A DNA stretch of 64,000 bases, from assembly GCA_002383495.1 (NCBI GenBank), contig DFZO01000001.1, positions 4,374 to 68,373 on the forward strand, given 5' to 3'. Both the position numbers and the translations under genes were made by a program. The notes under the pieces are model-generated. The model worked only from the letters and a program-made list of their open reading frames with translations. It did not search any database and was not told where the DNA came from. The DNA comes from Syntrophaceae bacterium UBA4054 (GTDB lineage: Bacteria > Desulfobacterota > Syntrophia > Syntrophales > UBA4778). Below are positions 498 to 62,552 of this stretch, one piece after another (the first letter of the stretch is position 1; every line of letters starts with the position of its first letter).

Positions 498-1461
498 CCG
501 CTTCCATCCACTTCATTTTTCCGAAAAGCCGGAAACACTTCGTACAGTTGACAGGCCAGTCTTTTTTGAGGTCCGAACGCATGACCTTATCCATGAACCA
601 TGCCAGCGTCCGGTAATGCCGGAGTATCCCTTCCTCGATGCCGATTTCCCGGATGTTCCCCAGATATTCTCTTCCGAATACATTCGGACTGTCTCCGTTC
701 GTCGGGTGGGAGAGATTACAGCAGAAGATGAAATTCCCCAGGTGGTCAAAGGAGATTCCATTAGCGGGATTGCAGAGGGGAACCCTGTAATCCGGATGTG
801 CAAATCCTTCGATACTGATGTTCAATAAAAATGACGGCATTATCCTGCCGGTTATTTGCCTGATGACTTCGGAATATTCTTCAGCCGTGGGCAAGAGATT
901 GCTCGATACAAGACGGGGCGTGGGCGTGAGCAGGACATACCCAAGGCTTCCTGCTCCTATCGATGCGCATAAATGGGCGACTTCCACGATGTCTTTCCTG
1001 TTTTCACTGTGAACGATGCTTTTGACGGACACAGGAATCTTCTCTTTCACACAGGCTTCGATTGAACTGATGACCCTGTCGAAACTTCCTTCTTTTCTTA
1101 TCATATCGTGGGAAGCCGATGTCGCGCCATCAAGGCTGAAACAGACCCCGTCGAGATGTCTTCTCACTTTAGAATCAAAGAGGGGAAGAATCTTATCTTC
1201 AAACAGAAAACCGTTGCTGACCAGGCTGAATCGAACCCCATAATCGACCAGAAGATCACAGACACGGTTCAACTCGGGGTGAAGAGCGGGTTCGCCGCCC
1301 GTAAGACACACATTCATCATGCCTACGGAAGACATTTCCCTGAGCACTAAATCGAGGAGATCGGGAGACATATGCGCCCTGGGCGCCACTTTGTCCCTGA
1401 GGCAGTGGATGCAATCGAAATTACAATGATTCGTGATGTCTATGGCAATGTTATATAGCAT
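469..1461 (-). CDS. radical SAM enzyme with C-terminal Cys-rich (SPASM/twitch-like) extension, peptide-maturase type
   Basis: 330 aa. The N-terminus has NHCNFDCIHC (CX3CX2C) and a GGEP SAM-binding motif. The C-terminal part has CNPANGISFDHLGNFIFCCN and CTKC, suggesting an auxiliary-cluster domain. It sits next to a PqqD-family gene. Confidence 0.85.
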   Translation of the reverse strand: MLYNIAIDITNHCNFDCIHCLRDKVAPRAHMSPDLLDLVLREMSSVGMMNVCLTGGEPALHPELNRVCDLLVDYGVRFSLVSNGFLFEDKILPLFDSKVRRHLDGVCFSLDGATSASHDMIRKEGSFDRVISSIEACVKEKIPVSVKSIVHSENRKDIVEVAHLCASIGAGSLGYVLLTPTPRLVSSNLLPTAEEYSEVIRQITGRIMPSFLLNISIEGFAHPDYRVPLCNPANGISFDHLGNFIFCCNLSHPTNGDSPNVFGREYLGNIREIGIEEGILRHYRTLAWFMDKVMRSDLKKDWPVNCTKCFRLFGKMKWMEADESADNRYR

Positions 1462-1504
1462 ATCATGAATAAAACGTTGAAAGGCAAGGACCGCGGAACG
1501 GGTT

Positions 1505-1520
1505 TCCGGTCACCACCGGA
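1505..1520 (-). promoter_or_regulatory. short GC-rich intercistronic hairpin between the 96-aa gene and the radical SAM gene
   Basis: The minus strand reads UCCGGU-GGUG-ACCGGA, a 6-bp stem with a 4-nt loop, inside the 71-nt spacer 1462-1532. The position resembles attenuator hairpins that follow precursor genes in RiPP operons. No U-tract follows. Confidence 0.3.
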
Positions 1521-1532
1521 TTTCGGTATGAT

Positions 1533-1823
1533 TTATAGTTTTTGTGCCAGTTTCGTGAAGACATTCTGCAATGCATAGTTGACCCTCGTAAAATTGGTCT
1601 GCAGGGCAACATTGGATTCTGTGACTTGTTGCAGCACCGCGTAACTGCTTTCGGCAATGACCTGCGCGTTGGCCACATAGGTATCTATGGCAGCAACGGT
1701 TGTATTGGTCACCGGAGTATTGGAAACTGCAAGGACATACTGGGTTTTGGTCACCCATGCCCTGACAGTCAGAATCTGGGACTCATCCCTTATATCGGGT
1801 CTTATGTATTTTTTCTTTTCCAT
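1533..1823 (-). CDS. hypothetical 96-aa protein, Cys-free and T/V/N/A/Q-rich; candidate substrate of the adjacent rSAM enzymes
   Basis: The ORF overlaps the PqqD gene's 3' end by 22 nt, which suggests translational coupling, and ends 71 nt before the rSAM gene. The sequence looks like a real protein (MEKKKYIRPDIRDE...NAQVIAESSYAVLQQVTESNVALQTNF...). The other minus frames give R/C/H-rich off-frame-looking products. Confidence 0.45.
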   Translation of the reverse strand: MEKKKYIRPDIRDESQILTVRAWVTKTQYVLAVSNTPVTNTTVAAIDTYVANAQVIAESSYAVLQQVTESNVALQTNFTRVNYALQNVFTKLAQKL

Positions 1824-2062
1824 GAGGGTGCCTTTTTCTCAAGTCTATCCATGAAATCCAGGATGTCTTTTTCCAACTCCTCTTCCCCAACGTCGTATTG
1901 CTCAAGCAATGCCGATTTTATTTCCTCTACCGTCTTGCCGTCGTTGACCATCTTGGCAATAAGGAGAGCTGTCTCATTGAGAAAATAGCTTGTGCTCCGC
2001 TCGACATCAATCATCATGCCTTCGCCATCGACTTCTGCCAGAATGATCTCGTCTTTCATCAT
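1802..2062 (-). CDS. PqqD-family protein (RiPP-recognition-element type peptide chaperone)
   Basis: 86 aa, with LNETALLIAKMVNDGKTVEEIKSALLEQYDV..EELEKDILDFMDRLEKK, which matches the PqqD winged-helix pattern. AAAGAGG lies 8 nt upstream of the ATG. It is the first gene of the rSAM operon. Confidence 0.75.
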   Translation of the reverse strand: MMKDEIILAEVDGEGMMIDVERSTSYFLNETALLIAKMVNDGKTVEEIKSALLEQYDVGEEELEKDILDFMDRLEKKAPSWKRKNT

Positions 2063-2694: not shown

Positions 2695-3009
2695 ATGAAA
2701 CGTTTTATCATTGGGATCATCATCATTACATTGTGTCTGAGTCTCGGTCCCCTTGCGGGAGTCGGGTCGGCGGGATGGCCGGACGCAAATTCGGCATCGG
2801 AGGGCTGTTCGGTCAAAAAGTTTTCCTGTTGTAAGGCACAAAAACATATCGGGACGATGTCGGTCAAGATGTGCTGGAATGTGCGTAATTCTGCCTGTGC
2901 ACCCTGCAAGAGCCGGCATGAGCTTGACAGGGAATGCAACGAGAAATTCAAGAATTGTGGAAACAGATGCCGTCTGACTGTCAAATGCGGAACTTTCGAG
3001 CAGTGGTAA
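2695..3009 (+). CDS. small secreted cysteine-rich protein, paralog P1 (most divergent)
   Basis: 104 aa with AAGGAGG upstream. MKRFIIGIIIITLCLSLGPLAGVGSAG looks like a signal peptide. The mature part has 10 Cys on the family scaffold (..MCWNV....CAPC.........CNEK...C...C). Confidence 0.75.
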   Translation: MKRFIIGIIIITLCLSLGPLAGVGSAGWPDANSASEGCSVKKFSCCKAQKHIGTMSVKMCWNVRNSACAPCKSRHELDRECNEKFKNCGNRCRLTVKCGTFEQW

Positions 3010-3276
3010 TTGGCCCGTCCTGAAGAATGACCATTTCATGGTTCTTTTCACGGCATCTGTTCTCTGAAAACTGATGCCGGCGACAGGGTAAAGTGTTTCT
3101 CCGCGGCAAGCGGCATCACATCTGCAATGAGACCGTCAAATAGGGGCGGCAGCGATAGAACAAGATGCCTGCGGGAAGCTCAAGAAGGGCATTCCGGCTT
3201 ATGAAGGAAATAAAGTTGTTTCAATAAACATGAAAGAATCGTTGGCAACCAAATCAACAAAAAGGAGGACAGTACC

Positions 3277-3624
3277 ATGAAGAAAGGTGTTTTGATTCTG
3301 GGGGTGCTCGTCATTATGATTTTTGCTTCCTTTGCTGTTAACATAGGGATAGCCCGGGCAGATTGTGGTGACGAGAAGGTGTATTGCAAGATAGAAGGGG
3401 GCACGGAAGTAGGTACCGTCAAGGTTGGCAAGTGCTATGACTGGAAACATGCTAAATGTAAAGTGTGTCATGGCAACGCATATTTTGCCAAACAGTGCAA
3501 TAAAAAAATAATAGCGTGTGTCGGGAAATGCTGGGGTTGCATAATGGGGAAATGTTGGTGGACGGACTGGAAAAAATGCGAAGCTTGCTATGATCAAAAC
3601 GGAAACAAGCACGATCCGAAGTAG
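3277..3624 (+). CDS. small secreted cysteine-rich protein, paralog P2
   Basis: 115 aa with AAGGAGG upstream. The signal peptide ends in ARA. The mature part has 12 Cys, VGTVKVGKCYDW, CKVCHG (CxxCH) and CNKK. Confidence 0.85.
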   Translation: MKKGVLILGVLVIMIFASFAVNIGIARADCGDEKVYCKIEGGTEVGTVKVGKCYDWKHAKCKVCHGNAYFAKQCNKKIIACVGKCWGCIMGKCWWTDWKKCEACYDQNGNKHDPK

Positions 3625-3639
3625 ACTATCTCTACGGCT

Positions 3640-3784
3640 ATTGTCTCGAGGCGCAATCAATACCTCGGAGGCCATCGTCGTCGGGAACAAGATCATCAAA
3701 GCCGGCAATACGGTGCGTGTCGGCTATGACAGGGAAGACAACACCTTTATGGCACATATGGTGCTGAAGATCGAAAAGAGATAA
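3640..3784 (+). pseudogene. 3'-terminal remnant of a repeat-domain (D-family) gene
   Basis: The track ORF 3590-3784 ends in ..NTSEAIVVGNKIIKAGNTVRVGYDREDNTFMAHMVLKIEKR*, homologous to the last ~42 aa of the 6115-6825 product. Its 5' part overlaps the P2 gene and has no domain homology. The left boundary is approximate. Confidence 0.6.
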
Positions 3785-3800
3785 GAAAGGAGAAAATACC

Positions 3801-4082
3801 ATGAAACGTTTTATGATCGGAACCATCGCAGTGATTGCGCTTTGTCTGTTCATCGTATCCTTTTCTGGAGTCTCGTCGGCGGGATGTTCGGACTCAAAGT
3901 GCCCATGCTATAAAAACAATACAACCATTTCTGTCGGAAAGGTCACGGTCGGGAATTGCTGGAAGTGGTCGCCGCCGGGTTGTGATCTTTGCCACGGCTA
4001 CAAAGGGATTGTAAAGAAGTGCAACAAGAAGTACAAGGAGTGTAACAATGAATGCTATTCATCTGAAAGTGATTGCTCCTGA
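3801..4082 (+). CDS. small secreted cysteine-rich protein, paralog P3
   Basis: 93 aa with AAAGGAG upstream. The signal peptide ends in SSA. The mature part has 10 Cys, VGKVTVGNCWKW, CDLCHG (CxxCH) and CNKK. Confidence 0.85.
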   Translation: MKRFMIGTIAVIALCLFIVSFSGVSSAGCSDSKCPCYKNNTTISVGKVTVGNCWKWSPPGCDLCHGYKGIVKKCNKKYKECNNECYSSESDCS

Positions 4083-4113
4083 TAAAATATGAATACTCAA
4101 TGAATAACACATC

Positions 4114-4122
4114 ATTAATTAA
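4114..4122. promoter_or_regulatory. third copy of the palindromic ATTAATTAA core
   Basis: tcATTAATTAAtg lies 34 nt upstream of the P4 start. The other two copies I found in the window sit in the conserved motifs at 2371-2379 and 15364-15372. Confidence 0.3.
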
Positions 4123-4155
4123 TGCGCCCAAAGGCGGTTCGCATCGGAGGTGAAA

Positions 4156-4485
4156 ATGAAAACTTTGGCAATTGCATTTGTTATGTTTGTGGTGATATTT
4201 TTTTCAGGGTTTGTCGGATTCAGCTATGCCGGCTGCCCAGATTGGCATGGATTCTGTTATGCAGACGCCGGAAATGGGAGGCTGTTAGGAAAGGTCACGG
4301 TCGGCAAGTGCTGGAAGTGGAATGGGAATGGCTGTGATTTTTGTCGCGGGAACAAGGAGCCGGTCCGGCATTGTAATGGCAAATATGTACTGTGTTTGTT
4401 CAACTGCTGGGCATGTGACGATAAAAAGGGTAACGATAGAACCTGCTGGGACAAGCATGGTAACAGGCATGATTCAAATTGGTGA
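4156..4485 (+). CDS. small secreted cysteine-rich protein, paralog P4
   Basis: The track ORF starts at GTG 4150. The ATG at 4156 is better placed, 5 nt after GGAGG. The signal peptide ends in SYA. The mature part has 10 Cys, GKVTVGKCWKW, CDFCRG (no His) and CNGK. Confidence 0.8.
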   Translation: MKTLAIAFVMFVVIFFSGFVGFSYAGCPDWHGFCYADAGNGRLLGKVTVGKCWKWNGNGCDFCRGNKEPVRHCNGKYVLCLFNCWACDDKKGNDRTCWDKHGNRHDSNW

Positions 4486-4570
4486 GCGTTAGCCCTCGCT
4501 GGCATGTCGTGCTGCAGCATGACATCGGGTGTGAATCGCCCGATGAGGATTGCGCTAAAATGAATTTTAG

Positions 4571-4705
4571 CACGTGCCCCTGTACCTGGATCTGCTGCCC
4601 GATCAAGCGGAGGCGCGGGAAATGCTGACAAAGCACGGCTTTGAAATCGTGAGATCCACGGACGAGGCGGCGTTTTACCTCGTCGTGGCAAAAACGATAA
4701 AATAG
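4571..4705 (+). pseudogene. possible C-terminal fragment of an unrelated gene (class-I methyltransferase-like tail)
   Basis: My own translation after an in-frame stop gives HVPLYLDLLPDQAEAREMLTKHGFEIVRSTDEAAFYLVVAKTIK*. This resembles the ..GFE.V......YLVVA.K C-termini of SAM-dependent methyltransferases. It has no start codon or RBS. The family assignment is from memory only. Confidence 0.3.
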
Positions 4706-4762
4706 GATTTGATGGAACGTCCTCGATTATCAGGTATCAGGCAAGAAAGGAGGTCATATACC

Positions 4763-5137
4763 ATGAAGAAAGGTGTTTTGATTTTGGGGGTGCTCATCAT
4801 TATGATTTTTGCTTCATTTGCTGTTAACATAGGGATAGCCCGGGCGGGCTGTAGTGACAGAAAGGTGTCTTGCAAGATAGAAGGGCGCATTGACGTAGGC
4901 ACCGTCTATGTTGGCACGTGTTATGACTGGAGAACAACTCGTTGCAATTTTTGTCATGGCAACGCATATACTGTCAAACAGTGCAATAAAAAAATAGTGG
5001 CGTGTGCGTATTTTGGGAACTGCTGGGGTTGCTGGAAAGAAGCGAGGGGGGGGAATTGGACTGAAACCTGCTATCCATCGGGTAATGGCAAGTTAACACC
5101 GAGGGGACATGTTTCGATGTATAATTTGGAGGATTGA
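4763..5137 (+). CDS. small secreted cysteine-rich protein, paralog P5 (chimeric 3' end)
   Basis: The track ORF 4709-5137 has its likely true start at the ATG at 4763, after AAAGGAGG. MKKGVLILGVLIIMIFASFAVNIGIARA is nearly identical to the P2/P6 signal peptides. The mature part has 10 Cys and CNFCHG (CxxCH). The last ~19 codons are encoded by the repeat element at 5080-5163. Confidence 0.8.
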   Translation: MKKGVLILGVLIIMIFASFAVNIGIARAGCSDRKVSCKIEGRIDVGTVYVGTCYDWRTTRCNFCHGNAYTVKQCNKKIVACAYFGNCWGCWKEARGGNWTETCYPSGNGKLTPRGHVSMYNLED

Positions 5138-5163
5138 CCACAAATAAAACGAAAAAAGGAGGA
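5080..5163 (+). repeat. ~80-nt repeated upstream module R, copy 1 (contains TGTATAAT and the AAGGAGG RBS)
   Basis: gggtaatggcaagttaacaccgaggggacatgtttcgatgtataatttggaggattgaccacaaataaaac...aaggagg is near-identical to 5572-5650, with a few substitutions and indels. TATAAT at 5120-5125 is preceded directly by TG, so it could be an extended -10. Copy 1 overlaps the P5 3' end and precedes P6. Confidence 0.7.
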
Positions 5164-5170
5164 CAGTACC

Positions 5171-5515
5171 ATGAAGAAATGTGTTTTGATTTTGGGGGTG
5201 CTCGTCATTATGGTTTTTGCTTCCTTTGCTGTTAACATAGGAACAGCCCGGGCAAGCTGCAGTAACATAGAGGTGGATTGTAAGATAGAAGGGAGCATTA
5301 AAGTAGGCACCGTCTATGTTGGCGGGTGCTACGACTGGGCTAATAATGAGTGTAAAGTGTGTCATGGCAACGCATACCCTGCCAAACAGTGCAATAAAAA
5401 AATAGTGGCGTGTGCGTATTTCGGGAACTGTTTGGGTTGCTGGATGAGTGGGGATACAGATCCTTCTCATGAAGTTTGCTATGATATAAACGGAAACAAG
5501 CACGATCCGAAGTGA
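5171..5515 (+). CDS. small secreted cysteine-rich protein, paralog P6
   Basis: 114 aa with AAGGAGG upstream. The signal peptide ends in ARA. The mature part has 10 Cys, VGTVYVGGCYDW, CKVCHG (CxxCH) and CNKK. Its C-terminal NGNKHDPK is shared with P2. Confidence 0.85.
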   Translation: MKKCVLILGVLVIMVFASFAVNIGTARASCSNIEVDCKIEGSIKVGTVYVGGCYDWANNECKVCHGNAYPAKQCNKKIVACAYFGNCLGCWMSGDTDPSHEVCYDINGNKHDPK

Positions 5516-5658: not shown

Positions 5659-6099
5659 ATGAAAAAAATCTTTATTCTTTGTTTGGCATTATCTTTCCTT
5701 GCCGTTTTCTCGACTGGCGATCTCATCGCCGCTGAGAAGGCAAAACCCGTGAAGCAGAAAGCATCAGCCAAAAGATCCGTAAAGGTGCCTGTCCCGAAGG
5801 TGATTGAGACATTCCTGGGTGTCGTTGCCGGGATAGACACGGCGGAAAAGACGCTCGCCGTCCGGGCGCGCTACGCCGCGGAATACTATTTCGATTCGGG
5901 CTTCATGATGGAGAAGGAATTTGTGCTCGATGAAGACGACATCACATTCGACATCTCGGAAGCCAAATTCGCGGGATGCGGTCCCCAAAGTTGCGCAAAG
6001 GCGGAGGATTTCAAAACGGGGGATCATGTCCGGGTAGCCTATGAAAGGAAGGGCGACAAATATATCGCCAATATCGTGCTGAGAATCGGGAAAAGATAG
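5659..6099 (+). CDS. secreted protein with one copy of a ~95-aa repeat domain (D1)
   Basis: 146 aa with AAGGAGG upstream. The signal peptide is MKKIFILCLALSFLAVFSTGDLIAA, followed by a Lys/Ala-rich linker. The domain runs VIETFLGVVAGIDTAEKTLAVRA...ITFDISEAKF...GDHVRVAYERKGDKYIANIVLRIGKR. Confidence 0.8.
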   Translation: MKKIFILCLALSFLAVFSTGDLIAAEKAKPVKQKASAKRSVKVPVPKVIETFLGVVAGIDTAEKTLAVRARYAAEYYFDSGFMMEKEFVLDEDDITFDISEAKFAGCGPQSCAKAEDFKTGDHVRVAYERKGDKYIANIVLRIGKR

Positions 6100-6114: not shown

Positions 6115-6825
6115 ATGAAGAAACGATTCATCATTTACTGTGCGGCAGTATTGACCATTGTTTTTTTCATCACGGGGGCCATGGCCCAGGATAAGGCCAA
6201 AGCGGCGACGAAGAAGGCAACAAAACAAAAGAAAGTAAAGGTGGAAGCCCCTAAAGTGATCGAGACCTTTCTGGGAACGGTCGCCGGTGTGGACGCAGCC
6301 GGAAAGAAACTGACCGTTCGCGCATTGTACGGAACGGAATACCACATCAGCGGAGGCAACATCGCCACGAGGGAGTTCATCGCCGACGAAGTGGATCTAA
6401 CCTTTGACATTGCCAAGGCGAAGCTTGTGGGATTTTCGGGAATCGGGGACATCCACGCAGGCAGCCATGTCCGGGTGGGTTATGACTGCAAAGGTGAAGC
6501 CCTGATCGCCCACACGGTTCTCCACATCCCGCCGAAGCGGGACAGATCGGTCACAAGGACTTTTCTGGGCACGGTTACCGGAGTGGATGAAGCGAAAAAG
6601 GCTTTGACTGTGAGGGCAATCCTGGAGGGGGAATTTTACGTAAACGAGGCAAATACGGACCTCAAGGAGTATGTCCTTGACGAGAAAGACATCACCTTTG
6701 ACACCTCAAAGGCCGTCTTCGTGGGGAATAAGAAGATTATCAAGGGAGACACTGTCCGCGTGGGTTTTGACGAAAAGAAGGGCGCCTATGTCGCCCATAC
6801 GGTGCTGAAAATCGAAAAGAGATAG
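6115..6825 (+). CDS. secreted protein with two tandem copies of the same ~95-aa domain (D2)
   Basis: 236 aa with AAGGAGG upstream, a signal peptide and a K/A-rich linker. It has two repeats, each with TFLGTV.GVD.A.K.LTVRA ... TFD..KA..VG ... G..VRVG.D.K....AHTVL.I. Confidence 0.8.
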   Translation: MKKRFIIYCAAVLTIVFFITGAMAQDKAKAATKKATKQKKVKVEAPKVIETFLGTVAGVDAAGKKLTVRALYGTEYHISGGNIATREFIADEVDLTFDIAKAKLVGFSGIGDIHAGSHVRVGYDCKGEALIAHTVLHIPPKRDRSVTRTFLGTVTGVDEAKKALTVRAILEGEFYVNEANTDLKEYVLDEKDITFDTSKAVFVGNKKIIKGDTVRVGFDEKKGAYVAHTVLKIEKR

Positions 6826-7141: not shown

Positions 7142-8716
7142 ATGGTTTACTTGTGGTTGAAATCCTGCTGGATGAACCGCCTGACCCTGGCGGTAATGAT
7201 CATTGTCTTCCTCCAGGCATTTCCGGCCCTTGGTGAAGACAAAAAGATTTCCGGAGCGACACAGGACGCAAAAGTCAGGACCCTCACCCTGGCCGACTGC
7301 GTCATGCTCGCCCTGCAGAACAACGTGGCCATCCGCACGGCTTATCTGGACAGAATTTCCCAGAGGATGTTCCTCCGCGTCGCGGAGGACAAATTCATAC
7401 CGCAGCCGTCCCTCTCCTTCTCCACTACAACCACATCCAACTACAACACCGATAATACCCGGACGCAGGCTGCCGCACAGGACGCCAAGTTTGTGACCAC
7501 CCTGACGCTTCCTACTGGAGGCGCCGTTAATTTCACCTGGGACAATCCGGCGAACAAACCGGATGTGGGGCAGGATTACGGCTACAGTTCGGGCTGGAGC
7601 GTCACCTTCACGCAGCCGATCCTCAAGAATGCCGGAATCGATGCGGCCACCCAATCCGTCCGGCAGGCGCGAATCGCCGAGGAACAGGCCGTTCTTGATC
7701 TGAAAGACACCCTCACAAGCACGATCACGACGACCGTCACGAACTATCGGGCATACCTGTCGGCATTGCGCAGCTACGACATTCAGGTGAAGGGTCTCGA
7801 AACGGCGAGGCAGACCCTCGAAACGAACAAAGCGCTGATCGCAGCCGGAAGGATGGCCCAGACGGAAATTATCCAAACGGAGAACGATGTCGCCAACCAG
7901 GAGTTGAGCGTCATCACCGCCAGGAACAGTATTGACTCGTCTCTCCTGACACTGCTGCAGACGCTCGACCTGGACAGAAACACCCGGTTCCTGCCCGTTG
8001 AGGAGCCGGAGCAGAAGGTATCCCCTCCGTCATTGCAGGAGGCGATCGCCATAGCGATCAAGAACCGCTCGGACTACATCAAGGCGGTTCAGAACCTCGA
8101 TCTAGCAAACCTGGACATGGCCGTCAAGAAACGGGGTCTCCTCTGGGATCTTTCGCTGGTGACAGGCGCCGGCCGCACCGGCACGGATGACACCTACCGG
8201 GGGGCTTTCGGGGATCAGCCGCCCGGGAAAAGCAACTGGAACGTGGGGCTCACGCTCAACATTCCTTTGCGGGACCTGGCAACGGAAAGCACCTATGTGT
8301 CGGCAAAGGTCGCATGGGAAAAAGCCCGGATCAACCTGAAAAAACTGACGGCAGACATCGGGATCGACGTGCAGAACAAGCTCCGCGACATCGATGTCAA
8401 TTACAGGAGCTATATCCTGTCAAAGAAAGGACGGGAACTCGCGGAAAAGAAACTCGCGATCGAACAGGAAAAACTGAAACTCGGCCGGACGACCAATTTC
8501 CAACTGGTCAGTTTCCAGAACGACGTGAGAAACCAGCGAACGACGGAGTTGCAGGCCCTGATCACCTATCTCAATTCCTTGACGGCCCTGGACCAATCGC
8601 TGGGCATTATCCTCAACCGCTGGAACATAGCCGTCAAACGCGAAGACGTGGACGTTAAACTGCCCGAGACGGAGAAAAAAGCGGCTAATCAGAAGGTGTC
8701 GGCAAAGGCAGAGTAA
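7142..8716 (+). CDS. TolC-family outer-membrane efflux protein
   Basis: 524 aa. It has an N-terminal signal-like segment (an alternative start is MNRL at 7172). The pattern LTLADCVMLALQNNVAIR and the two-fold repeated coiled-coil/beta architecture are typical of the OEP family. It is the first gene of a four-gene exporter operon. Confidence 0.85.
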   Translation: MVYLWLKSCWMNRLTLAVMIIVFLQAFPALGEDKKISGATQDAKVRTLTLADCVMLALQNNVAIRTAYLDRISQRMFLRVAEDKFIPQPSLSFSTTTTSNYNTDNTRTQAAAQDAKFVTTLTLPTGGAVNFTWDNPANKPDVGQDYGYSSGWSVTFTQPILKNAGIDAATQSVRQARIAEEQAVLDLKDTLTSTITTTVTNYRAYLSALRSYDIQVKGLETARQTLETNKALIAAGRMAQTEIIQTENDVANQELSVITARNSIDSSLLTLLQTLDLDRNTRFLPVEEPEQKVSPPSLQEAIAIAIKNRSDYIKAVQNLDLANLDMAVKKRGLLWDLSLVTGAGRTGTDDTYRGAFGDQPPGKSNWNVGLTLNIPLRDLATESTYVSAKVAWEKARINLKKLTADIGIDVQNKLRDIDVNYRSYILSKKGRELAEKKLAIEQEKLKLGRTTNFQLVSFQNDVRNQRTTELQALITYLNSLTALDQSLGIILNRWNIAVKREDVDVKLPETEKKAANQKVSAKAE

Positions 8717-8721
8717 AAATC

Positions 8722-10458
8722 ATGGGACAGGACGAAATCATCTACAGGAACATTCTTGAAAATATGTCCGACGGGGTCATGACGATTGGCCTCGACGGCC
8801 ACATCCTCACTTTCAATGAAGCAGCGGAACGGATTCTGAATCTCAAGAGAACAGAGGTCATCAACCGCCTCTTCGGTGAGGTTTTCCTGACCAGGGAAGG
8901 CAACGACGACTTCAATCAGGCCATTCTGAGCGCCGTCTACGACGCCTCCATGTCACAGAACAGCACCGTCAGCTACCACACGGAAGAAAAGACGCTCGCC
9001 CTTTCCGTCACCACATCCTTCCTCCGATCCGCACCGGAGGGAGAGAAGAGGAGCGCGGCCGTCATCGTCGTTTTCAGCGACCGTACAGAGATAGAACAGC
9101 TTCGTCAAAAAGAAAGCGAGCTGAACGAAGAAATCAAGGCCCGGCACCAGGAATTGCAGAAATCCTACCTTGAACTGGAGGATTCAAATGCCCTTCTCCA
9201 GACCGCTCTCAAGAAGGTGCAGATGATCCGCGTCACGGCAACCGCTTTGATCATCCTCCTTTTCGTCGCCATCGGGTTTGTAACCTGGACAAGGACCCAC
9301 CATGGAAAATCAGACGGCATGCCGCTCAAGAGAACAAAAGACGGCGCCCCCATGACCTATACCGTCGTGCCCAGAAATCTCACGGACAGCATTTCTCTCA
9401 AGGGAAACCTGAGGCCGATAAAAGTGGTAAACGTGACGAGCCCCTTCACGGGAACGGTGAAGGAAAAGTTGTTCCAATACGGCGAAACGGTCGCGAAAGG
9501 TCAGATCCTCATCCGCATGGACGTCACGGAGGCGGAATCGAAGTACCGGGACGCTAAAGCGGCCTTCATCAAGGCCGGCGAAAAATATCGGGAAGTCATG
9601 AACTGGCAGAAGAGCGACGAGATGGCCAAGGAGACACGATCCCTGGACAAGACCAAGAAAACATTCCAGGAGACGGAGATCCTTTTCAAGAAAGGCATCG
9701 TTTCTGCCAATGAATACGATGATGCAAAAACCAACTATGAAAATGAACTTCAGACCTTCAGGACCACCCAGGCAAAAGGAGAGGGAGAAAACCTGATCCT
9801 GGCAAAGCTGGAATATGACAACGCGAAAGCAAAACTCAACGAACTTCAGTCTCAGCTGAGCGGGGCGGTTGTCCGCGCCCCCGTTTCCGGCACGGTTATC
9901 CGCTCCGGACTGGCGGACAAGGACAAAAAAGAAAAGGTCATCGAGAGAGGCGCCTCTTTCAACCAGGGTGAGATGCTGGTATCCATCGGCGACACGAGCG
10001 GGCTCTCCGTGACGGCTTCCGTGGACGAGATGGAGGTCACGAAAATCAAGAAAGGTCAGGAGGTCGTGATTACCGGGGAGGCTTATCCCGGCATCTCGCT
10101 CAAGGGGACGGTAAACTATATCTCCTCACAGGCCAATGTCAAGGCAAGCGACGGGGACGGGCCAAAAGTCGCGACGTTTGACATCGGCATCGCCGTGGCG
10201 TCTCTCTCTCCGGAGGCGGCGAACATGGTGCGTCTCGGCATGTCCTCGAATCTGTCCATTCTCATCCTGAACAAGCCAGATGCTATTCTGGTTCCAATCA
10301 ACGCCGTCCGGACGGATGGGGATAACCGCGTCGTGACGGTGATCGATAAGACAAACCGAGAGAGAAAAACGGTCAAGGTGGAAACGGGGATCACCACCCT
10401 GGACTCCGTGGAGATTATCAAGGGCCTGAACCGCGGGGACGAGGTTGTCCTGAATTGA
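8722..10458 (+). CDS. membrane-fusion (HlyD/MacA-type periplasmic adaptor) protein with N-terminal cytoplasmic PAS domain
   Basis: 578 aa. Residues ~5-120 match the PAS pattern (IYRNILENMSDGVMTIGLDGHILTFNEAAERILNLKRTEV). A coiled-coil stretch follows, then a TM segment VTATALIILLFVAIGFVTW. The rest is adaptor-like, with motifs GTVKEKLFQYGETVAKGQILIRMD and VRAPVSGTVI. Confidence 0.8.
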   Translation: MGQDEIIYRNILENMSDGVMTIGLDGHILTFNEAAERILNLKRTEVINRLFGEVFLTREGNDDFNQAILSAVYDASMSQNSTVSYHTEEKTLALSVTTSFLRSAPEGEKRSAAVIVVFSDRTEIEQLRQKESELNEEIKARHQELQKSYLELEDSNALLQTALKKVQMIRVTATALIILLFVAIGFVTWTRTHHGKSDGMPLKRTKDGAPMTYTVVPRNLTDSISLKGNLRPIKVVNVTSPFTGTVKEKLFQYGETVAKGQILIRMDVTEAESKYRDAKAAFIKAGEKYREVMNWQKSDEMAKETRSLDKTKKTFQETEILFKKGIVSANEYDDAKTNYENELQTFRTTQAKGEGENLILAKLEYDNAKAKLNELQSQLSGAVVRAPVSGTVIRSGLADKDKKEKVIERGASFNQGEMLVSIGDTSGLSVTASVDEMEVTKIKKGQEVVITGEAYPGISLKGTVNYISSQANVKASDGDGPKVATFDIGIAVASLSPEAANMVRLGMSSNLSILILNKPDAILVPINAVRTDGDNRVVTVIDKTNRERKTVKVETGITTLDSVEIIKGLNRGDEVVLN

Positions 10459-12385: not shown

Positions 12386-13827
12386 ATGCCCGCTAACGAA
12401 AATTCCAAGGATGCCCTGATCATTTTCAGCGTCGCCCTCGCGACCTTCATGGGAAGGCTGGACAGCTACATCGTCAATGTATCCCTGCCGACAATGGCAC
12501 GGTATTTCGACTCCAGCCTGAGCGACATCTCCAGGGTTGTTTTTATCTATGTCCTGGCGATGTCGAGCACCCTCCTGTTGTTCGGAAAACTGGCGGACAG
12601 AACGGGGCTGAAGAGACTTTTCCTCTGGGGCTACTTTCTCTTCACCGCAGGTTCGCTGGTATGCGGCGTTTCCACCGGCATCCATATGCTTATCGTTTCA
12701 CGCTTCGTGCAGGAATGGGGAGCTCGATGCTGTCCGCGACATCCCTTGCTATCCTGTCGCGATACATTCCCCCGGAAAAAACCGGGATGGCCTTCGGGAT
12801 CTTCACCTCGGCAAGCGCCCTGTGCATCACTCTTGGAGCGCCTCTGGGCGGATTCATAACGGGATTCATATCCTGGCACTGGATTTTCCTCGTCAACATA
12901 CCGATAGGAATTGCCGCGATCTTTGTTGCCGGAAAAGCCATTCCCAGCGAAAGCCCGTGCGGGCAGGAAGGAACCGCCGCATCTTTTGATTTTCTCGGTG
13001 CCTTCCTGATCCTGACGGCCATATCCCTGCTCCTTTTTGCCCTGAACAACGGCCAGGAATGCGGCTGGACGTCCATCAAGATCGTCCCGGGTTTCGTCTT
13101 GTCCGCCCTCTGCGGTGCGGCCTTTGTCGTGAGAGAAAAGAGATTCGCCTCACCTCTCATCGATATCTCGTTGTTCAGCGATGCCCGGCTTTATCTGCCG
13201 CTCATGGCGAATTTTATTATCTACATGACCATGGCGGGGCACAATTTTCTGATGCCCTTCTATCTCGACCTGCTCAAACACATGACCCCGTCCCGCATCG
13301 GGCTTTTTCTGATGATCTACTCCGTTGTGTTCGTCATCGTTCCCGCCGTCACCGGAAAATACTCCGATAAAACAAATCCCGTCATGATCAGTTCTCTGGC
13401 CATGGTCATCACGGCCTTTTCGTTTTTCTTTTTCTCCTTCACCCTTCATCTCGGGGGACTCCTCTTTGTGGTTGCCTTCTTTGTCATCAGGGCGATCGGC
13501 AACGGCATGTTTGTCCCGCCGAACCACATGCTCATCATGAAGGCTTCTTCCGGAAAAGACGAGGGCGCCGTTTCGGGCGTTCTGAATACGGTGAGCTTTC
13601 TGGGGGCAACCATTGGTGTCGTTCTCTTTGAAAGCGTCTTTTCCCAGATCATTCACCAGACCGGAAGCAATCATACCCTGGACAGTCCGGCCTTTTCAGC
13701 GGATAATCTCTATGCCGGTTTTCGCTATGTCTTCTTCGCACTTGGTGTCATCAGCGTCGCCGGCGTGATCACGTCCTGGCTCACCGGAGCCGCTGCAAAG
13801 AAAACAGCAAAGGAGATTTCACCATGA
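12386..13827 (+). pseudogene. MFS transporter (drug:H+ antiporter-like), apparently frameshifted near 12712-12716
   Basis: The N-terminal frame (12386-) reads ..LDSYIVNVSLPTMARYF..IVSRFVQE and then runs into nonsense. The +1 frame continues GMGSSMLSATSLAILSRYIPPEKTGMAFGIF.., restoring the conserved R..QG.G motif. One extra G in cag-gaa-tgg would join the two frames. Confidence 0.6.
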
Positions 13828-15394: not shown

Positions 15395-15563
15395 CCATTC
15401 CGTAAATGTCATCAAGTGATTCAGGATGCTGGTCTTCCCCAGGCAGCCGGGTCACACCTGCCACGCATGTGACTTCAGATTAAGCTCAATCCGTTATTGT
15501 TCCGCAAGTGCAACCGGATCAACTCCTGCGGTCGCTTTGCCGGGTATAAGAACAGGGACTTCC

Positions 15564-16064
15564 ATGTTTCGTGTATGCAATCCTCGTCTTATGACCGCTT
15601 TTTTCATTGTGTGGACTGCCATGCTGATGATCCCGGGGGCGGTGCACGCCCAGGTCGGCGAAATCTCAACGATAAGCCTCACCGTGACCGCCAGGGTCAA
15701 AGGATACTGCAGCATTTCCGAGGCCGCTTCGCCCACTCTGCAGTTCGGAAACCAGGACGGCATCTCCGGACCGGAGACGATCACCCGTGAGACGACCATC
15801 GCCTTTGCCTGCACCGCGGATATCCCTTTTGCGATAACCATCGGAGACGGGAACCATTACGGCAGCGGCAGGAGGATGAAGCATAAATCAAAAAATGAAT
15901 ACATTCCTTACGATCTCGCCGTGTCGCCGTCATCCGGTACGGGAAGGGGAACGTCGACGGAAATCACGAGCACCCTCACCGGGACCATACAGAAATCAAC
16001 GCTCAAGACTATTCCCGTTGGAGACTACGATGACGCCGTTATTGTCACCATCGAAGCAAAATAA
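15564..16064 (+). CDS. spore-coat-U (SCPU)/Csu-type fimbrial subunit 1
   Basis: The track ORF 15426-16064 has its likely start at MFRVCNPRLMTAFFIVWTAMLMIPGAVHA (15564, or 15591). It has a signal peptide and SCPU hallmarks: Cys pair, RRMKHKSKNEYIPYDLA, GDYDDAVIVTIE. Confidence 0.8.
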   Translation: MFRVCNPRLMTAFFIVWTAMLMIPGAVHAQVGEISTISLTVTARVKGYCSISEAASPTLQFGNQDGISGPETITRETTIAFACTADIPFAITIGDGNHYGSGRRMKHKSKNEYIPYDLAVSPSSGTGRGTSTEITSTLTGTIQKSTLKTIPVGDYDDAVIVTIEAK

Positions 16065-16135
16065 CAATCCCAAGACGGAGCATGAAGGCCGTCGGATCTG
16101 TTTTTTCGTCACCCTATTTGAAAGGAGGGTTCACC

Positions 16136-16621
16136 ATGTTACAGAATAAGAAAGGGTTTCTTTTATCCGTGCTCGGTTTCCTGAGCATTTTCATTGTCGC
16201 GACCGCCGGCGTGTCTTACGGTGGCAACACCGTTACGGTCCCGGTAAAGGTGAATCTCGTGGGGTCATGCGACATACAGAACACTCCCGAAATCAATTTC
16301 GGCGACGTCAATCCCCTCGATGCAGCAACGGACCACACAAACACCAGCGCGCTGAACTTCACCTGCAGCTCCGGTACGACATACAAGATCGAGTTGGACA
16401 AAGGCAAATACTACAAGGACACCGATAAGAGAATGAAGCACGAATCCAAGGACAATTACATTGTTTACGGCCTGAGCACTCCCTGCTCGACCGGTACAGG
16501 AACAGGTTCCCAGGTGTCATGCGATATCACGGGAACGATTTCCAAAAACGTATCCCTGAAAGACAACCCAGTGGGAAAGTACAACGACGATGTCATCGTT
16601 ACCATTACAGCGACCAATTGA
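16136..16621 (+). CDS. SCPU/Csu-type fimbrial subunit 2
   Basis: The ATG at 16136 lies 6 nt after AAGGAGGG; the track ORF starts at 16082. It has a signal peptide, KRMKHESKDNYIVYGLS and GKYNDDVIVTITA. Confidence 0.85.
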   Translation: MLQNKKGFLLSVLGFLSIFIVATAGVSYGGNTVTVPVKVNLVGSCDIQNTPEINFGDVNPLDAATDHTNTSALNFTCSSGTTYKIELDKGKYYKDTDKRMKHESKDNYIVYGLSTPCSTGTGTGSQVSCDITGTISKNVSLKDNPVGKYNDDVIVTITATN

Positions 16622-17411
16622 TGCGACGCAGCCCCGGATCCTGCGCGGGAGCGTCCTTTTCATCTTTCTGTTTGCCGCAATCGCCGGCTGCCTATCTCAG
16701 GCTCGCCCCGCCGTTGCATACTCCGGGAAATGGGCCATCTCTCCCGTCACGATCGATCTCGACCGCAAGGTTCGTTCCGCCGTTGTCACTATTTACAACC
16801 AGGGACAGGGGGCCGGCGAGTTCGAGGTGAAGGTCACGGAGTGGAGCCAGAACGACAGGGGAGAGGATGTCCAGTCTCCCACAAAGGACATCATTTATTT
16901 CCCGAGATTTCTGAAGATCCCCAAAAATGAATCCAGGATCATCCGGCTGGCTGCCCGGACGCCCGCGGTGCGTAACGAAAAAACCTACCGGCTCATTGTG
17001 GCAGAACTCCCAGACAGGAGCGAGCCTAAGGCCACCGGCGTGAGTTTTCAATTTCAGTTCTCGATTCCCTTCTTCGTCCTCCCTCCGAACAAGGTCGTAA
17101 AGGGAAAGATTCTCAACAGCGGAGTGTCCGGCGGAGAGGTGCGGACGACCGTATCGAACGAAGGGAACACCCGGTTTCGCGTTGATTCCGTAACTGTTCA
17201 GGGGAAGAACTTGAAAGACGAGATCCTCTTCGAGAAAACCATTACGGGCTGGTATATCCTGGCCGGCGCGTCAAAAGTTTATTCCGTACCTGTCCCCGCG
17301 GACAAATGCGCAGGGTTGGCAACGGCGGATATCACAATCAAGGCACGCGATCTGATCCTCAAAGATACCGTCGCCATGGATAGGGCCGCATGCGGCAAGG
17401 GCAAACAGTAA
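16590..17411 (+). CDS. fimbrial periplasmic chaperone (PapD-like)
   Basis: 273 aa with a signal peptide. It shows an Ig-like chaperone pattern (AISPVTIDLD...VVTIYNQG...IIYFPRFLKIPKNESRIIRL). It sits between subunit and usher genes. The exact start is uncertain. Confidence 0.8.
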   Translation: MSSLPLQRPIDATQPRILRGSVLFIFLFAAIAGCLSQARPAVAYSGKWAISPVTIDLDRKVRSAVVTIYNQGQGAGEFEVKVTEWSQNDRGEDVQSPTKDIIYFPRFLKIPKNESRIIRLAARTPAVRNEKTYRLIVAELPDRSEPKATGVSFQFQFSIPFFVLPPNKVVKGKILNSGVSGGEVRTTVSNEGNTRFRVDSVTVQGKNLKDEILFEKTITGWYILAGASKVYSVPVPADKCAGLATADITIKARDLILKDTVAMDRAACGKGKQ

Positions 17412-19798
17412 TTCATGATCGCCCGCCGCGCGGGTTGAACGTTTTTATAGCGGCCTTTCTTTCCATCCTCCTGGTTTCGGGCGGTTACGGCCTCGCACAG
17501 GACGGACTTGAATGGGTTCCGATCAGGCTCGTCCTTAATCACATCGAAAAGGGAGACTGCGACGCGCTGATGACCAAAGACGGTGATTTCTTCCTTCTCG
17601 AAGAAGATATGAAAAGGTTCGGCATAAACGCATTTTCGTCTCGAAGCATGGTATTCAACAAACGTGTTTTCAGATCGCTGCGTTCCATAACCGGTGTCAT
17701 CTGCCGCTTCGATGAAAAGACCGTCACTCTCGATGTCACGGTGCCGCCGTCTTTCCTCCCGAATCAGGTCATCGACTTCGTCTCGCGTCCCATGTCAGAC
17801 GTGCATGTGCCCCGCAACAACCGCAGCGCCTTCCTGAATTACGGCTTCAGCTACGATACCGAAGACTTTCAGCGCAATGCCGCTTTCAACATCTCAAACC
17901 AGCTCGGAATAAACATTAAAGATTACACTTTCCTCACCGAATCATCCTACTCACAGAATCGCAATTCCAAAAGTTTCGTAAGGCTCCTGTCCAGTCTCAG
18001 CCGGGATTCACGGAACGACATGACAAGAACCACCTTCGGTGATTTCTTTACATCTTCAGGCAGCCTTGGCGGCTACATGAACATGGGCGGCGTCAGTTAC
18101 TCCCGGGTCTTTCGCATCAACCCCTATTTTGTCAGGGATCCCGCATTCAATTTTTCGGGACTCGCGCCCTTCGCGACACAGGCCGACCTCTACATAGACG
18201 GTATGCTCGTCAGGAGTCAGAAACTTCAGCCCGGCCGTTTCGAGCTGCGCAACTTATCCTATTACGGCGGCTACCGTAATGTGGAAATCGTCCTCAAGGA
18301 TGCCTTCGGAAGAGAAGAGCGAATCCTGGTCCCCTTTTACTTCTCAAATATCATGCTCAAAGAGGGACTCCATGGGTTCAGTTACAACCTCGGATTCATC
18401 CGAAATGATTATGGTCTGGAGAGCAACCATTACACCATCCCCGGATTCAGCGCTTACCACCGCTACGGGATGAACGACCGCTGGACTGTCGGGTTCCGGG
18501 GTGAAGGCACCGGCGACCTGTTGAACGCAGGCCCGGAGACCTCCATAACACTCGGCAGCGCCGGCATCGTGACGCTGGCGGGCGCGTACAGTCTTGCAAG
18601 AGACGCCGCGGACGGCATGGCCGGACTTCTCACGTACGGCTTCCAGCGGAAATGGTTCAGTGCGCGCTTCCTTCTGCAGGGCTTCAGCCATGATTACCGT
18701 ACGGCGTCCGACAACGGAAATACCCTGTCTCCTGTTTCTATGCCGCGTTCACTGGCAAGCGGCGGCATCGGCATTTCCATGGGCAGGATCGGATCGCTGT
18801 CCTTCGACTATACCCGCACGGAAAGATGGGACTCCCTTGCGGACTCAACGGCGGAGACCGTCACGTACTCGACCAACCTTGGAAAATCGTCCACCCTGCA
18901 GGTTACGTTTAGACATGAAAACGGAGCAAACAGCGATATGCAGTTCTTCGTCAGCCTCAATTTCTATCCCTGGCGGGATCACCAGGTCTACGCAAAGGCA
19001 TCCAGGAACGGGAACTCGGAAACACAGGGCGTGCAGATCGATAAGACCGTACCCCAGGGAGAAGGATACGGGTACAGGGTCTCCATGGACAGAAGCAAAA
19101 CGGACGCGTCGGACGCCGCATACACTTTCAATCCCTATGTCCGGTACAACGGGCGATACGGCATCTACTCCGCCGATTATCGTGCTACACAGTCCGGGTC
19201 GGATCGTTCCGGAACCGGGCAGCTGACGGCATCCGGGGCACTGGCTTACATCGACGGTTCCATAGGCGCCACGAGGCCCATCTACGACAGCTTCGCGCTG
19301 GTCAAGTTGGAAGGGCTCAAAGATATCAACGTACTATCCGCCAACCAGCCCATGGGCAAGACTGACTCAAGCGGCCGCGTTTTCTTACCGAATCTCAGCT
19401 CCTATTACAGCAACCAGGTCGCCGTGGACGCCGCGGACATTCCTATGAATTACGGCGTGTCGAACGTCGTCAAGTATGTATCCCCGTGGTACAGGGGCGG
19501 CGCCGTGGTCGATTTCGCGCCGGCCAGGATCCAGGCGGTCACGGGCACCCTCGCCGTGACGGCTCACGGCAAGCGCTCCCCTGTCGAATTCCAGGATCTC
19601 GCCGCCCGCGTCGACGGCGTCGAAAAATCGATTCCGACCGGCCGGGAGGGCGAGTTTTACATCGAAGACATGGCTCCCGGCCCTCATATCCTGTCTTTCC
19701 TGTACGACGGCCGCATGCGCACCTGTACATTCGACGTGCCGGCAAACGATGAACCCATCACCGATCTGGGAGGCGTTGTCTGTGAATCTTATAATTAA
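17390..19798 (+). CDS. fimbrial outer-membrane usher
   Basis: 802 aa. The size, its position after the chaperone and the beta-rich Y/G/S/N composition are typical of ushers. It overlaps the chaperone's 3' end. Confidence 0.8.
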   Translation: MRQGQTVIHDRPPRGLNVFIAAFLSILLVSGGYGLAQDGLEWVPIRLVLNHIEKGDCDALMTKDGDFFLLEEDMKRFGINAFSSRSMVFNKRVFRSLRSITGVICRFDEKTVTLDVTVPPSFLPNQVIDFVSRPMSDVHVPRNNRSAFLNYGFSYDTEDFQRNAAFNISNQLGINIKDYTFLTESSYSQNRNSKSFVRLLSSLSRDSRNDMTRTTFGDFFTSSGSLGGYMNMGGVSYSRVFRINPYFVRDPAFNFSGLAPFATQADLYIDGMLVRSQKLQPGRFELRNLSYYGGYRNVEIVLKDAFGREERILVPFYFSNIMLKEGLHGFSYNLGFIRNDYGLESNHYTIPGFSAYHRYGMNDRWTVGFRGEGTGDLLNAGPETSITLGSAGIVTLAGAYSLARDAADGMAGLLTYGFQRKWFSARFLLQGFSHDYRTASDNGNTLSPVSMPRSLASGGIGISMGRIGSLSFDYTRTERWDSLADSTAETVTYSTNLGKSSTLQVTFRHENGANSDMQFFVSLNFYPWRDHQVYAKASRNGNSETQGVQIDKTVPQGEGYGYRVSMDRSKTDASDAAYTFNPYVRYNGRYGIYSADYRATQSGSDRSGTGQLTASGALAYIDGSIGATRPIYDSFALVKLEGLKDINVLSANQPMGKTDSSGRVFLPNLSSYYSNQVAVDAADIPMNYGVSNVVKYVSPWYRGGAVVDFAPARIQAVTGTLAVTAHGKRSPVEFQDLAARVDGVEKSIPTGREGEFYIEDMAPGPHILSFLYDGRMRTCTFDVPANDEPITDLGGVVCESYN

Positions 19799-61942: not shown

Positions 61943-61974
61943 GTTCCGTGAACGTTTCCGCCCCGGCAAAGAAA

Positions 61975-62124: not shown

Positions 62125-62150
62125 GAATCTTGAACCCTGCTTTCACTTAG

Positions 62151-62467: not shown

Positions 62468-62552
<85 letters not shown>

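Follow-up and report, generated by a model that had tools for sequence, protein, structure and literature searches.

A widespread family of MacB-type pump adaptors with a cytoplasmic PAS/coiled-coil module, a candidate for inside-out control of export

The genome of Syntrophaceae bacterium UBA4054 (Desulfobacterota, Syntrophales; assembly GCA_002383495.1) encodes a periplasmic adaptor of a MacB-type tripartite exporter, in which a cytoplasmic PAS domain and a coiled coil precede the transmembrane (TM) helix and an ordinary adaptor body. The gene lies on contig DFZO01000001.1, in a stretch of 64,000 nucleotides (positions 4,374 to 68,373 of the forward strand) that is referred to here as the window, and its product is called the PAS-adaptor. 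The protein belongs to a large family that retains the cytoplasmic module and is encoded next to the remaining components of the pump. The module may exert inside-out control over the MacB-type exporter, a proposal that stands about evenly between being right and being wrong. The features of the window are listed in Table 1.

A first-pass annotation, made from the letters of this DNA alone, had described the protein as a PAS domain, a coiled coil, a single TM helix and an ordinary adaptor. This architecture was borne out by Pfam and NCBIfam profiles, AlphaFold2 (AF2) models and Foldseek searches; the open reading frame (ORF) is as described there, and its translation holds every motif that was quoted. 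The PAS fold was found by profile as well as by fold searches. Pfam recognises it as PAS (PF00989; 36.3 bits against a gathering threshold of 22.6, residues 8-104) and PAS_9 (PF13426; 28.8 bits against 27, residues 16-123), and NCBIfam as TIGR00229 'sensory_box', the PAS S-box model (33.8 bits, cut-off 22.9). The periplasmic part exceeds the cut-off of TIGR01730, the efflux RND transporter periplasmic adaptor subunit (122.2 bits, cut-off 94.9), and the Pfam gathering thresholds of HlyD_D23 (52.3 bits) and HlyD_3 (51.8 bits), which span residues 235-473. Because the TM helix, VTATALIILLFVAIGFVTWT, occupies residues 171-190, about 170 residues are located N-terminal to it, as had been stated.

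Two AF2 models were calculated, one for the full-length protein with a 40-sequence alignment as input (predicted local distance difference test, pLDDT, 80.9) and one for the first 192 residues (pLDDT 81.3). Both contain a canonical PAS fold at residues 2-120 and an unbroken helix that starts at residue 122, ends at residue 188 or 191 and comprises the coil and the TM segment. In the full-length model, residues 189-210 are disordered and lead into the four-domain adaptor body, where residues 211-578 form four 25-residue helices with beta domains on either side. The best Foldseek match of the whole model is MacA of MacAB-TolC (9qgy_G, E 2e-24; 5nik_D), and the adaptor body also matches AcrA, MexA and EmrA (E-values, including MacA, from 1e-24 to 1e-15). 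The N-terminal model retrieved the PAS structures of short LOV, FixL, YF1 and WalK with a probability of 1.0, and these matches are PAS proteins with an N-cap and a C-terminal coiled coil.

The design is not a peculiarity of one genome. From 5.8 billion proteins, at least 120 full-length relatives with 46-99% identity and 573-607 amino acids were retrieved, all of those listed carrying the PAS and adaptor Pfam domains. Even relatives with as little as 36% identity show the complete architecture over their full length, and the domain matches are therefore not due to chance. The first-pass annotation had asked how widespread such fusions are; in a scan of one genome per species, a relative is encoded in 199 genomes, and in the best 80 of these the alignment spans residues ~1-578. 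The carriers belong to the Syntrophales, Smithellaceae, Syntrophorhabdaceae, Geobacteraceae, Desulfobacterales and Desulfovibrionaceae, and to Binatia, Nitrospirae, Acidobacteriota and metagenome-assembled Alpha-, Beta- and Gammaproteobacteria. Two of them are in culture, Trichlorobacter thiogenes ATCC BAA-34 and Desulfobacter vibrioformis DSM 8776. When a profile of the N-terminal module (residues 1-192) was run against 1.84 billion cluster representatives, 171 clusters were matched at E <= 1e-30; among the best 150, approximately 132 are single-PAS proteins with an N-terminal module, mostly of 570-635 amino acids. The module is thus present in about 130-150 clusters at 50% identity. Databases label the relatives either as 'PAS domain S-box protein' or as 'HlyD family efflux transporter periplasmic adaptor subunit'. 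A literature search, which covered few papers in subscription journals, yielded no paper on any PAS-adaptor fusion. The earlier remark that this architecture has not been characterised therefore agrees with the literature searched, as far as that search goes, but has to be qualified in that the family is large and already annotated in databases.

Conservation was analysed in an alignment of 83 relatives, with the window protein as the reference for identity. Mean identity is 52% in the PAS domain, 50% in the coil, 44% in the TM helix and 46% in the periplasmic body, and falls to 14% in the linker behind the TM helix; by this measure the cytoplasmic module is conserved at least as well as the periplasmic body. 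In the PAS domain, G18, V19, G26, N32, A35, D62, F64, A71, Y73, L94, L101, V114 and D120 are at least 95% conserved, and conservation of the N-terminus begins at residue 1. The ratio of non-synonymous to synonymous substitutions (dN/dS), determined against the 87%-identical orthologue in locus L005, is 0.14 for the PAS domain, 0.31 for the coil, 0.14 for the TM helix and 0.155 for the periplasmic part. Conservation of the N-terminus and the low ratio in the PAS codons show that the PAS region is translated and that purifying selection acts on it as it does on the remainder of the protein; this places the start codon before the PAS domain, in line with the first-pass annotation. Each arm of the alpha-hairpin has seven residues more in most family members than in the window protein and its closest relatives (columns 337-343 and 370-376 of alignment A1, window residues ~317-345), so that, judged by the alignment, the hairpin of the latter is symmetrically shortened by one heptad per arm.

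The PAS-adaptor gene is part of an operon with the order duct, PAS-adaptor, ATPase and permease and with intergenic gaps of 5, 9 and 10 nt, respectively. The ATPase aligns with the nucleotide-binding domain (NBD) of MacB (NF007826 positions 3-223, 262 bits), and Walker A, signature motif, Walker B and H-loop are readable in its translation, while the permease aligns with MacB positions 256-645 and combines a MacB periplasmic core domain with a 4-TM module of the FtsX type, which makes the partner a MacB-type (type VII) ABC transporter. ATPase and permease are encoded by separate ORFs, i.e., the NBD is not fused to the permease. The cassette is kept in essentially all of the 84 loci examined, which stem from several phyla, and an OEP neighbour is present in nearly all of them. 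In L004, L036 and L038 the order is permuted to ATPase, permease, duct and adaptor, and the cassette is still intact. By analogy with MacAB-TolC, this exporter would expel periplasmic substrates across the outer membrane. MacB-type pumps have no transmembrane path for substrates, which are instead taken up on the periplasmic side and leave through TolC; among them is the Sec-exported, disulfide-bonded enterotoxin STII (PMC5985334). MacA stimulates the ATPase activity of MacB and makes contact with the transporter through its TM segment (PMC4338810).

MacA of Escherichia coli (MacAB-TolC; 5nik, 9qgy) shares with the PAS-adaptor the four-domain periplasmic fold and the single N-terminal TM anchor and likewise partners a MacB-type permease and a TolC-like duct. 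The same working principle, export from the periplasm to the outside by mechanotransmission (PMC5985334), would be expected for both. MacA has only a short cytoplasmic tail, however, where the PAS-adaptor has 170 residues with PAS domain and coiled coil. As the PAS-adaptor fails the MacA equivalog model NF008606 (63.7 bits, cut-off 342), it is MacA-like in fold but not a MacA orthologue. In E. coli MacB the NBD is fused to the permease, whereas both are separate polypeptides in the PAS-adaptor pump, as in LolCDE and DevBCA. DevBCA likewise combines a split ATPase and permease with an adaptor and a TolC-like duct, but the PAS-adaptor fails the DevB model TIGR02971 (45.1 bits, cut-off 129) and the window ATPase fails the DevA model (192 bits against 295.8). 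To our knowledge, no PAS domain occurs in DevB. HlyD of type 1 secretion systems is an adaptor too, and has a functionally essential cytoplasmic N-terminus (PMC8277102). This region is short and not a PAS domain, the ABC (ATP-binding cassette) partner of HlyD is of a different type, and the PAS-adaptor fails the corresponding model TIGR01843 (44.5 bits, cut-off 208.65). In ABC-associated adaptors, cytoplasmic regions are essential for substrate recognition and assembly and are structurally unknown (PMC8277102).

Indirect support for a signalling role comes from the build of the cytoplasmic module, which resembles a signal-transmitting device at several points: a DIT-type junction, a polar coil core, a stutter, indels of exactly one heptad, a conserved TM helix and a subfamily with an additional cyclic nucleotide (cNMP)-binding domain. 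At the junction between the PAS domain and the helix, D120 is present in 83 of the 83 relatives, T122 and E123 in 76 each, and position 121 is occupied by I, V or R. In sensor kinases, a 'DIT' junction is where a signalling PAS domain joins its coiled-coil linker. The 3-4 spacing of hydrophobic residues in the subsequent helix is conserved in the 83 relatives, with an a/d periodicity from residue 124 to 173; the a positions are filled by H142, Y149, N156, L163 and R170 and the d positions by L145, L152, L159, V166 and A173. A 4-4-3 (hendecad) stutter is located at residues 134-145, and conservation extends to polar residues of the core (E131, H142, N156 and R170). Exactly seven coil residues (135-141) are deleted in 14 of the 83 relatives, and one further relative lacks a different block of seven. 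As these indels comprise exactly seven residues, changes in coil length preserve the heptad register. In the TM helix, F181, G185 and W189 are at least 95% conserved, an unexpected degree of conservation that seems to exceed what a mere membrane anchor needs.

The nearest relatives of the PAS domain are found in sensor kinases. A search of the PDB with the N-terminal 192 residues as a single sequence gave no match, but a profile search did find relatives, and the nearest solved PAS domains directly precede the dimerisation and histidine phosphotransfer (DHp) helix of the kinases ThkA, WalK, SrrB and VicK. The NCBIfam matches of the PAS-adaptor likewise include AtoS, PnpS and WalK. The closest PAS relatives, i.e., the HisKA kinases ThkA (3a0r), WalK (4mn5), SrrB (7jl6), VicK (4i5s) and AtoS and the engineered YF1 (4gcz), share with the PAS-adaptor the N-cap helix, the D-I/V-T junction and a heptad coil after the last beta-strand. 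Unlike these kinases, the PAS-adaptor contains no DHp or catalytic domain, and its coil runs into the TM helix and the periplasmic adaptor; a Pfam scan of the protein gave no match to HisKA, HATPase_c or PilZ. Because its nearest PAS relatives precede a DHp helix, the cytoplasmic module resembles the front part of a sensor kinase, the output helix of which would have been spliced onto the TM anchor of an adaptor. His142 is invariant in the first 40 relatives and is replaced by N, R, T or S in the heptad-deletion subfamily. A role of this residue as H-box phospho-acceptor of a kinase was considered and rejected, since it is lost in 14 of the 83 relatives and no HisKA match exists.

In three independent cluster representatives (P0244, P0246 and the fragment P0132), a cNMP-binding domain (PF00027, 51.7 bits) directly precedes the array of PAS domain, coil, TM helix and adaptor. 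The coil has the same length in these variants as in plain PAS-adaptors, and on the single contig that was recovered the same genes for ABC ATPase and MacB_PCD permease follow downstream. The addition of a known ligand-binding domain in front of the PAS domain suggests the behaviour of a modular signal input, as it is by such stacking that modular signalling proteins evolve, and a stacked cNMP-binding domain would be hard to explain if the PAS domain were a structural collar only. The subfamily (P0244, P0246 and P0132; locus L089, 236..2092) retains the Glu and Arg of the phosphate-binding cassette (GEIAL...RVATA). Another metagenomic variant, P0164 (1064 aa), contains the PAS-adaptor and a MacB_PCD permease in one ORF, which may reflect a genuine fusion or else a read-through during gene calling. 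If genuine, it would underline that adaptor and permease are a functional unit.

A LOV-type flavin adduct needs a conserved Cys, and heme-type PAS domains need an axial His in the F-alpha helix. Cys reaches at most 4% of the relatives at any PAS position, the sole frequent His (position 79, 66% of relatives) is a Gln in the window protein, and the F-alpha helix (residues 62-73) contains no His. As the PAS domain has no conserved Cys or His, LOV photochemistry or a His-ligated heme of the FixL/DOS type is unlikely despite the fold matches, which speaks against light and heme-based redox or O2 sensing among the cues that the first-pass annotation had considered. A non-covalently bound ligand or a protein partner may still serve as the cue.

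The nearest conceptual precedent, by analogy, is Alg44 of the Pseudomonas alginate machinery, which has the same topology of an N-terminal cytoplasmic sensor, one TM helix and a periplasmic domain resembling membrane-fusion proteins. Binding of the second messenger c-di-GMP to the N-terminal PilZ domain of Alg44 activates this envelope-spanning machine post-translationally (PMC4436075). The resemblance is one of topology and logic only: the sensor is a PilZ domain with an RxxxR motif instead of a PAS domain, the partner is a glycosyltransferase and not an ABC transporter, no long coiled coil separates sensor and TM helix, and no homology was detected between the cytoplasmic parts of the two proteins.

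If the exporter is controlled from the inside, a cytoplasmic cue, most readily a non-covalently bound small molecule or a protein partner rather than a LOV-type flavin or a His-ligated heme, would alter the conformation of the PAS domain and the coiled coil. The parallel heptad coil would pass this change through the continuous helix into the conserved TM segment, and the change might also be transmitted by direct contact with the ATPase subunits. A helix of 49 residues is ~70 Å long, and the coil would thus place the PAS domains roughly level with these subunits. The change would then reach either the permease and ATPase or the adaptor's own periplasmic domains, and could set the extent to which the adaptor stimulates the ABC motor or the engagement of the duct. 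Two published observations are in keeping with such control, namely the stimulation of MacB by MacA together with the contact made by the TM segment (PMC4338810), and the essential role of cytoplasmic regions in ABC-associated adaptors (PMC8277102).

Several points weigh against such control. The evidence for signalling is comparative throughout, be it for a sensed signal, its nature, its direction or its effect on transport. The PAS domain offers no conserved Cys or His for a cofactor, and PAS domains are often mere dimerisation or interaction modules. Adaptors of this type are hexameric, whereas PAS/coiled-coil modules are usually dimeric. The cNMP-PAS variant is a minority subfamily encountered in metagenomes only, and the assignment of a cargo, described below, is based on gene neighbourhood in about 24 of 81 loci. 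Gating of the pump by a cytoplasmic signal, as proposed in the first-pass annotation, is accordingly plausible in view of the junction, the heptad indels, the TM helix and the cNMP subfamily, with sensing and direction as its inferred parts.

Some of these observations would equally suit a structural scaffold without sensing, in which the PAS domain and the coil oligomerise the adaptor or tether the separate ATPase to the permease; this is possible, although probably not the right explanation. The ATPase is indeed a separate and minimal polypeptide of 226 amino acids without a docking extension, and the best fold matches of the module are constitutively dimeric PAS/J-alpha proteins. The strong conservation of the PAS domain suits a protein-protein interface equally well, and the lack of conserved cofactor ligands is also in keeping with a scaffold. 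The DIT-type junction, the polar core and the stutter, on the other hand, are hallmarks of signalling linkers and not of a static zipper, an upstream cNMP-binding domain makes little sense on a purely structural module, and ordinary MacA, DevB and LolCDE-type systems assemble without a PAS domain.

A continuous helix can transmit in either direction, and the adaptor could instead report from the outside in: it would sense periplasmic cargo load or duct engagement, and its PAS domain would serve as an output that binds cytoplasmic regulators and couples expression to secretion. Candidate regulators would be the nearby-encoded STAS/RsbW-like pair, HD-GYP proteins and sigma-54 activators. At least 20 of the 84 loci, from several orders, have a pair of STAS and RsbW-like (HATPase_c_2) genes next to the cassette (L004, L007, L011-L017, L020, L022, L026, L036, L043, L047, L048, L050, L053, L058, L064, L069 and L075), often together with an HD-GYP protein or a sigma-54 activator, and in the window an RsbW-like-GNAT fusion is encoded two genes downstream of the permease. 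About 60 of the 84 loci, however, have no such neighbours within 9 kb, the PAS domain is located N-terminal to the coil with the junction motif of input PAS domains in kinases, and the cNMP-binding variant points to a cytoplasmic input. Outside-in reporting, including the regulators named for it, is therefore doubtful and decidedly improbable. The RsbW-like-GNAT protein is a possible regulatory neighbour of the pump, with an uncertain link to it. The HD-GYP and sigma-54 activator neighbours share an unannotated N-terminal domain ('SYPP.I..LAE.FG.M').

In type 1 secretion, cytoplasmic regions of the adaptor are essential for substrate recognition and assembly (PMC8277102), and a PAS domain that binds the substrate and triggers duct recruitment in an HlyD-like manner could be imagined on this basis. 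Such recognition of cytoplasmic cargo is very improbable, because the partner is of the MacB type, without a transmembrane substrate path and with uptake from the periplasm (PMC5985334), and the candidate cargo carries Sec signal peptides; the failed TIGR01843 score adds to this. An artefact, with the true start behind the PAS region or two genes joined by a frameshift, has a practically negligible chance of being right: a weak Shine-Dalgarno-like sequence upstream of the ATG can be cited for it and nothing else, whereas at least 80 species genomes and many independent metagenomes encode a full-length relative, the protein is conserved from its first residue with purifying selection on the PAS codons (dN/dS 0.14), and the gene spacing is compatible with translational coupling. 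The late start and the frameshift or fusion that the first-pass annotation had named as grounds for refutation are thus both contradicted.

The candidate cargo is encoded upstream of the pump, where six paralogous genes for small secreted Cys-rich proteins form an array. As listed in Table 1, these proteins comprise 93-142 amino acids, with 10-16 Cys each. They match no Pfam or NCBIfam model and hence constitute an orphan family, and a word-index search with them retrieved four close relatives only. In L001, L008, L009 and L010, a homologous array precedes the cassette; in L004, L012, L023, L036 and L038, this place is taken by small Cys-rich proteins of an unrelated family ('FCVYN...CCNWKNKDCN'), and other small secreted Cys-containing proteins flank the cassettes of Geobacteraceae and Binatia. 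ORFs of this kind are about four times denser at less than 3 kb from the cassette (38 in 24 of 81 loci) than at 3-9 kb (11 in 9 loci), in a comparison where the loci are not independent samples. Gene neighbourhood alone thus makes it plausible that the adjacent Sec-exported Cys-rich proteins are the cargo of the pump. Four of the six array proteins have a CxxCH-like motif (CDLCHG, CNFCHG and twice CKVCHG), and the other two have CDFCRG and CAPCKS at this site; CxxCH is the attachment pattern of c-type heme. A sigma-54-like -24/-12 element, TGGCACATATGGTGCT, is located inside the array, 36 nt upstream of the gene that starts at position 3801. Matches to the sigma-54 pattern are not enriched in the window (26 against 23 expected).

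Two proteins of a second secreted family, with the motif 'VIETFLG...VRVGYD...AHTVL', are encoded between the array and the pump, and a C-terminal remnant of this family lies inside the Cys-rich array. In L001 and L009, homologues are interleaved with the Cys-rich genes. Whether the second family belongs to the pump system is uncertain.

Taken together with the module, the neighbourhood allows a tentative and rather unlikely extension, in which the cassette would be the dedicated, signal-gated second step in a two-step secretion of small Cys-rich Sec proteins, some of them with CxxCH-like motifs. Once in the periplasm, these would be expelled by the MacB-type pump through the TolC-like duct, and the adaptor would serve as a transmembrane signalling device with a PAS or cNMP-PAS input that is perhaps wired to STAS/RsbW-like proteins. 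If this were true, syntrophic and metal-reducing anaerobes would control the export of their extracellular proteins by a post-translational switch operated from within the cell. Tripartite pumps are usually regarded as transcriptionally regulated. If the Cys-rich proteins are indeed cargo, MacB-type pumps would have a role in protein export in anaerobic Desulfobacterota and related phyla, and this role would extend beyond the single precedent of the enterotoxin STII. How the cytoplasmic regions of adaptors work is openly called unknown (PMC8277102), and the family provides a natural system for asking whether adaptors can transmit information across the inner membrane and whether export can be switched at the protein level. 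The existence of cultured carriers makes this question experimentally accessible.

Table 1. Features of the window, numbered from its first nucleotide (aa, amino acids; res, residues of the PAS-adaptor).
Feature	Coordinates	Strand	Basis
Radical SAM enzyme (330 aa), PqqD-like protein (86 aa) and 96-aa ORF	469..2062	-	
Six paralogous small secreted Cys-rich proteins	2695..5515	+	ORFs with Sec-type signal peptides
Genes of the six Cys-rich proteins	2695..3009, 3277..3624, 3801..4082, 4150..4485, 4709..5137, 5171..5515	+	
C-terminal remnant of the second secreted family	3590..3784	+	
Sigma-54-like -24/-12 element	3750..3765	+	1 mismatch
Two secreted proteins of the second family, 146 aa and 236 aa (internal duplication)	5659..6099, 6115..6825	+	Between array and pump
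TolC-like outer-membrane duct (OEP), 524 aa, first operon gene	7142..8716	+	Pfam OEP 135.8 bits, two repeats
PAS-adaptor (membrane-fusion protein), 578 aa	8722..10458	+	ORF, Pfam/NCBIfam matches and model
N-cap helix (res ~2-14) and PAS core (res 18-120), cytoplasmic	8725..9081	+	Pfam/NCBIfam, AF2, Foldseek
D-x-T-E junction (res 120-123) and cytoplasmic heptad coiled coil (res 122-170)	9079..9231	+	AF2 helix, alignment
Single TM helix (res 171-190)	9232..9291	+	Hydrophobic segment of long helix
Variable disordered periplasmic linker (res 191-212)	9292..9357	+	pLDDT <50; 14% mean identity
Periplasmic adaptor body: beta-barrel, lipoyl, long alpha-hairpin and membrane-proximal domains (res 213-578)	9358..10455	+	TIGR01730, HlyD_D23, HlyD_3; MacA fold
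Stand-alone ABC ATPase, MacB/LolD type, 226 aa	10468..11148	+	ABC_tran 120 bits
MacB-type permease, 4 TM helices and periplasmic core domain, 390 aa	11159..12331	+	MacB_PCD 114.9, FtsX 76 bits
Major facilitator superfamily (MFS) transporter, split into overlapping ORFs in different frames	12386..12859, 12661..13827	+	
RsbW-like HATPase_c_2 and GNAT-like fusion, 494 aa	13824..15308	+	HATPase_c_2 55.3, Acetyltransf_1 21.5 bits
Csu-type (archaic) chaperone-usher pilus cluster: two SCPU-domain subunits, PapD-like chaperone, 802-aa usher	15426..19798	+	
Five-tRNA cluster	61869..62646	-	

Scans of the operon region for sigma-70 promoters and terminators gave nothing interpretable. Control by a riboswitch or another RNA element was discarded, since an Rfam scan of the whole window returned five tRNAs only, which form a single cluster. 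The MFS transporter downstream of the permease is split by either a frameshift, which would make it a pseudogene, or a sequencing error; its orthologue in L005 is a single intact ORF of 480 amino acids. A Csu-type pilus cluster follows further downstream. At the other end of the window, the radical SAM/PqqD-like group is oriented divergently from the Cys-rich array and resembles a cluster for the maturation of ribosomally synthesised and post-translationally modified peptides.

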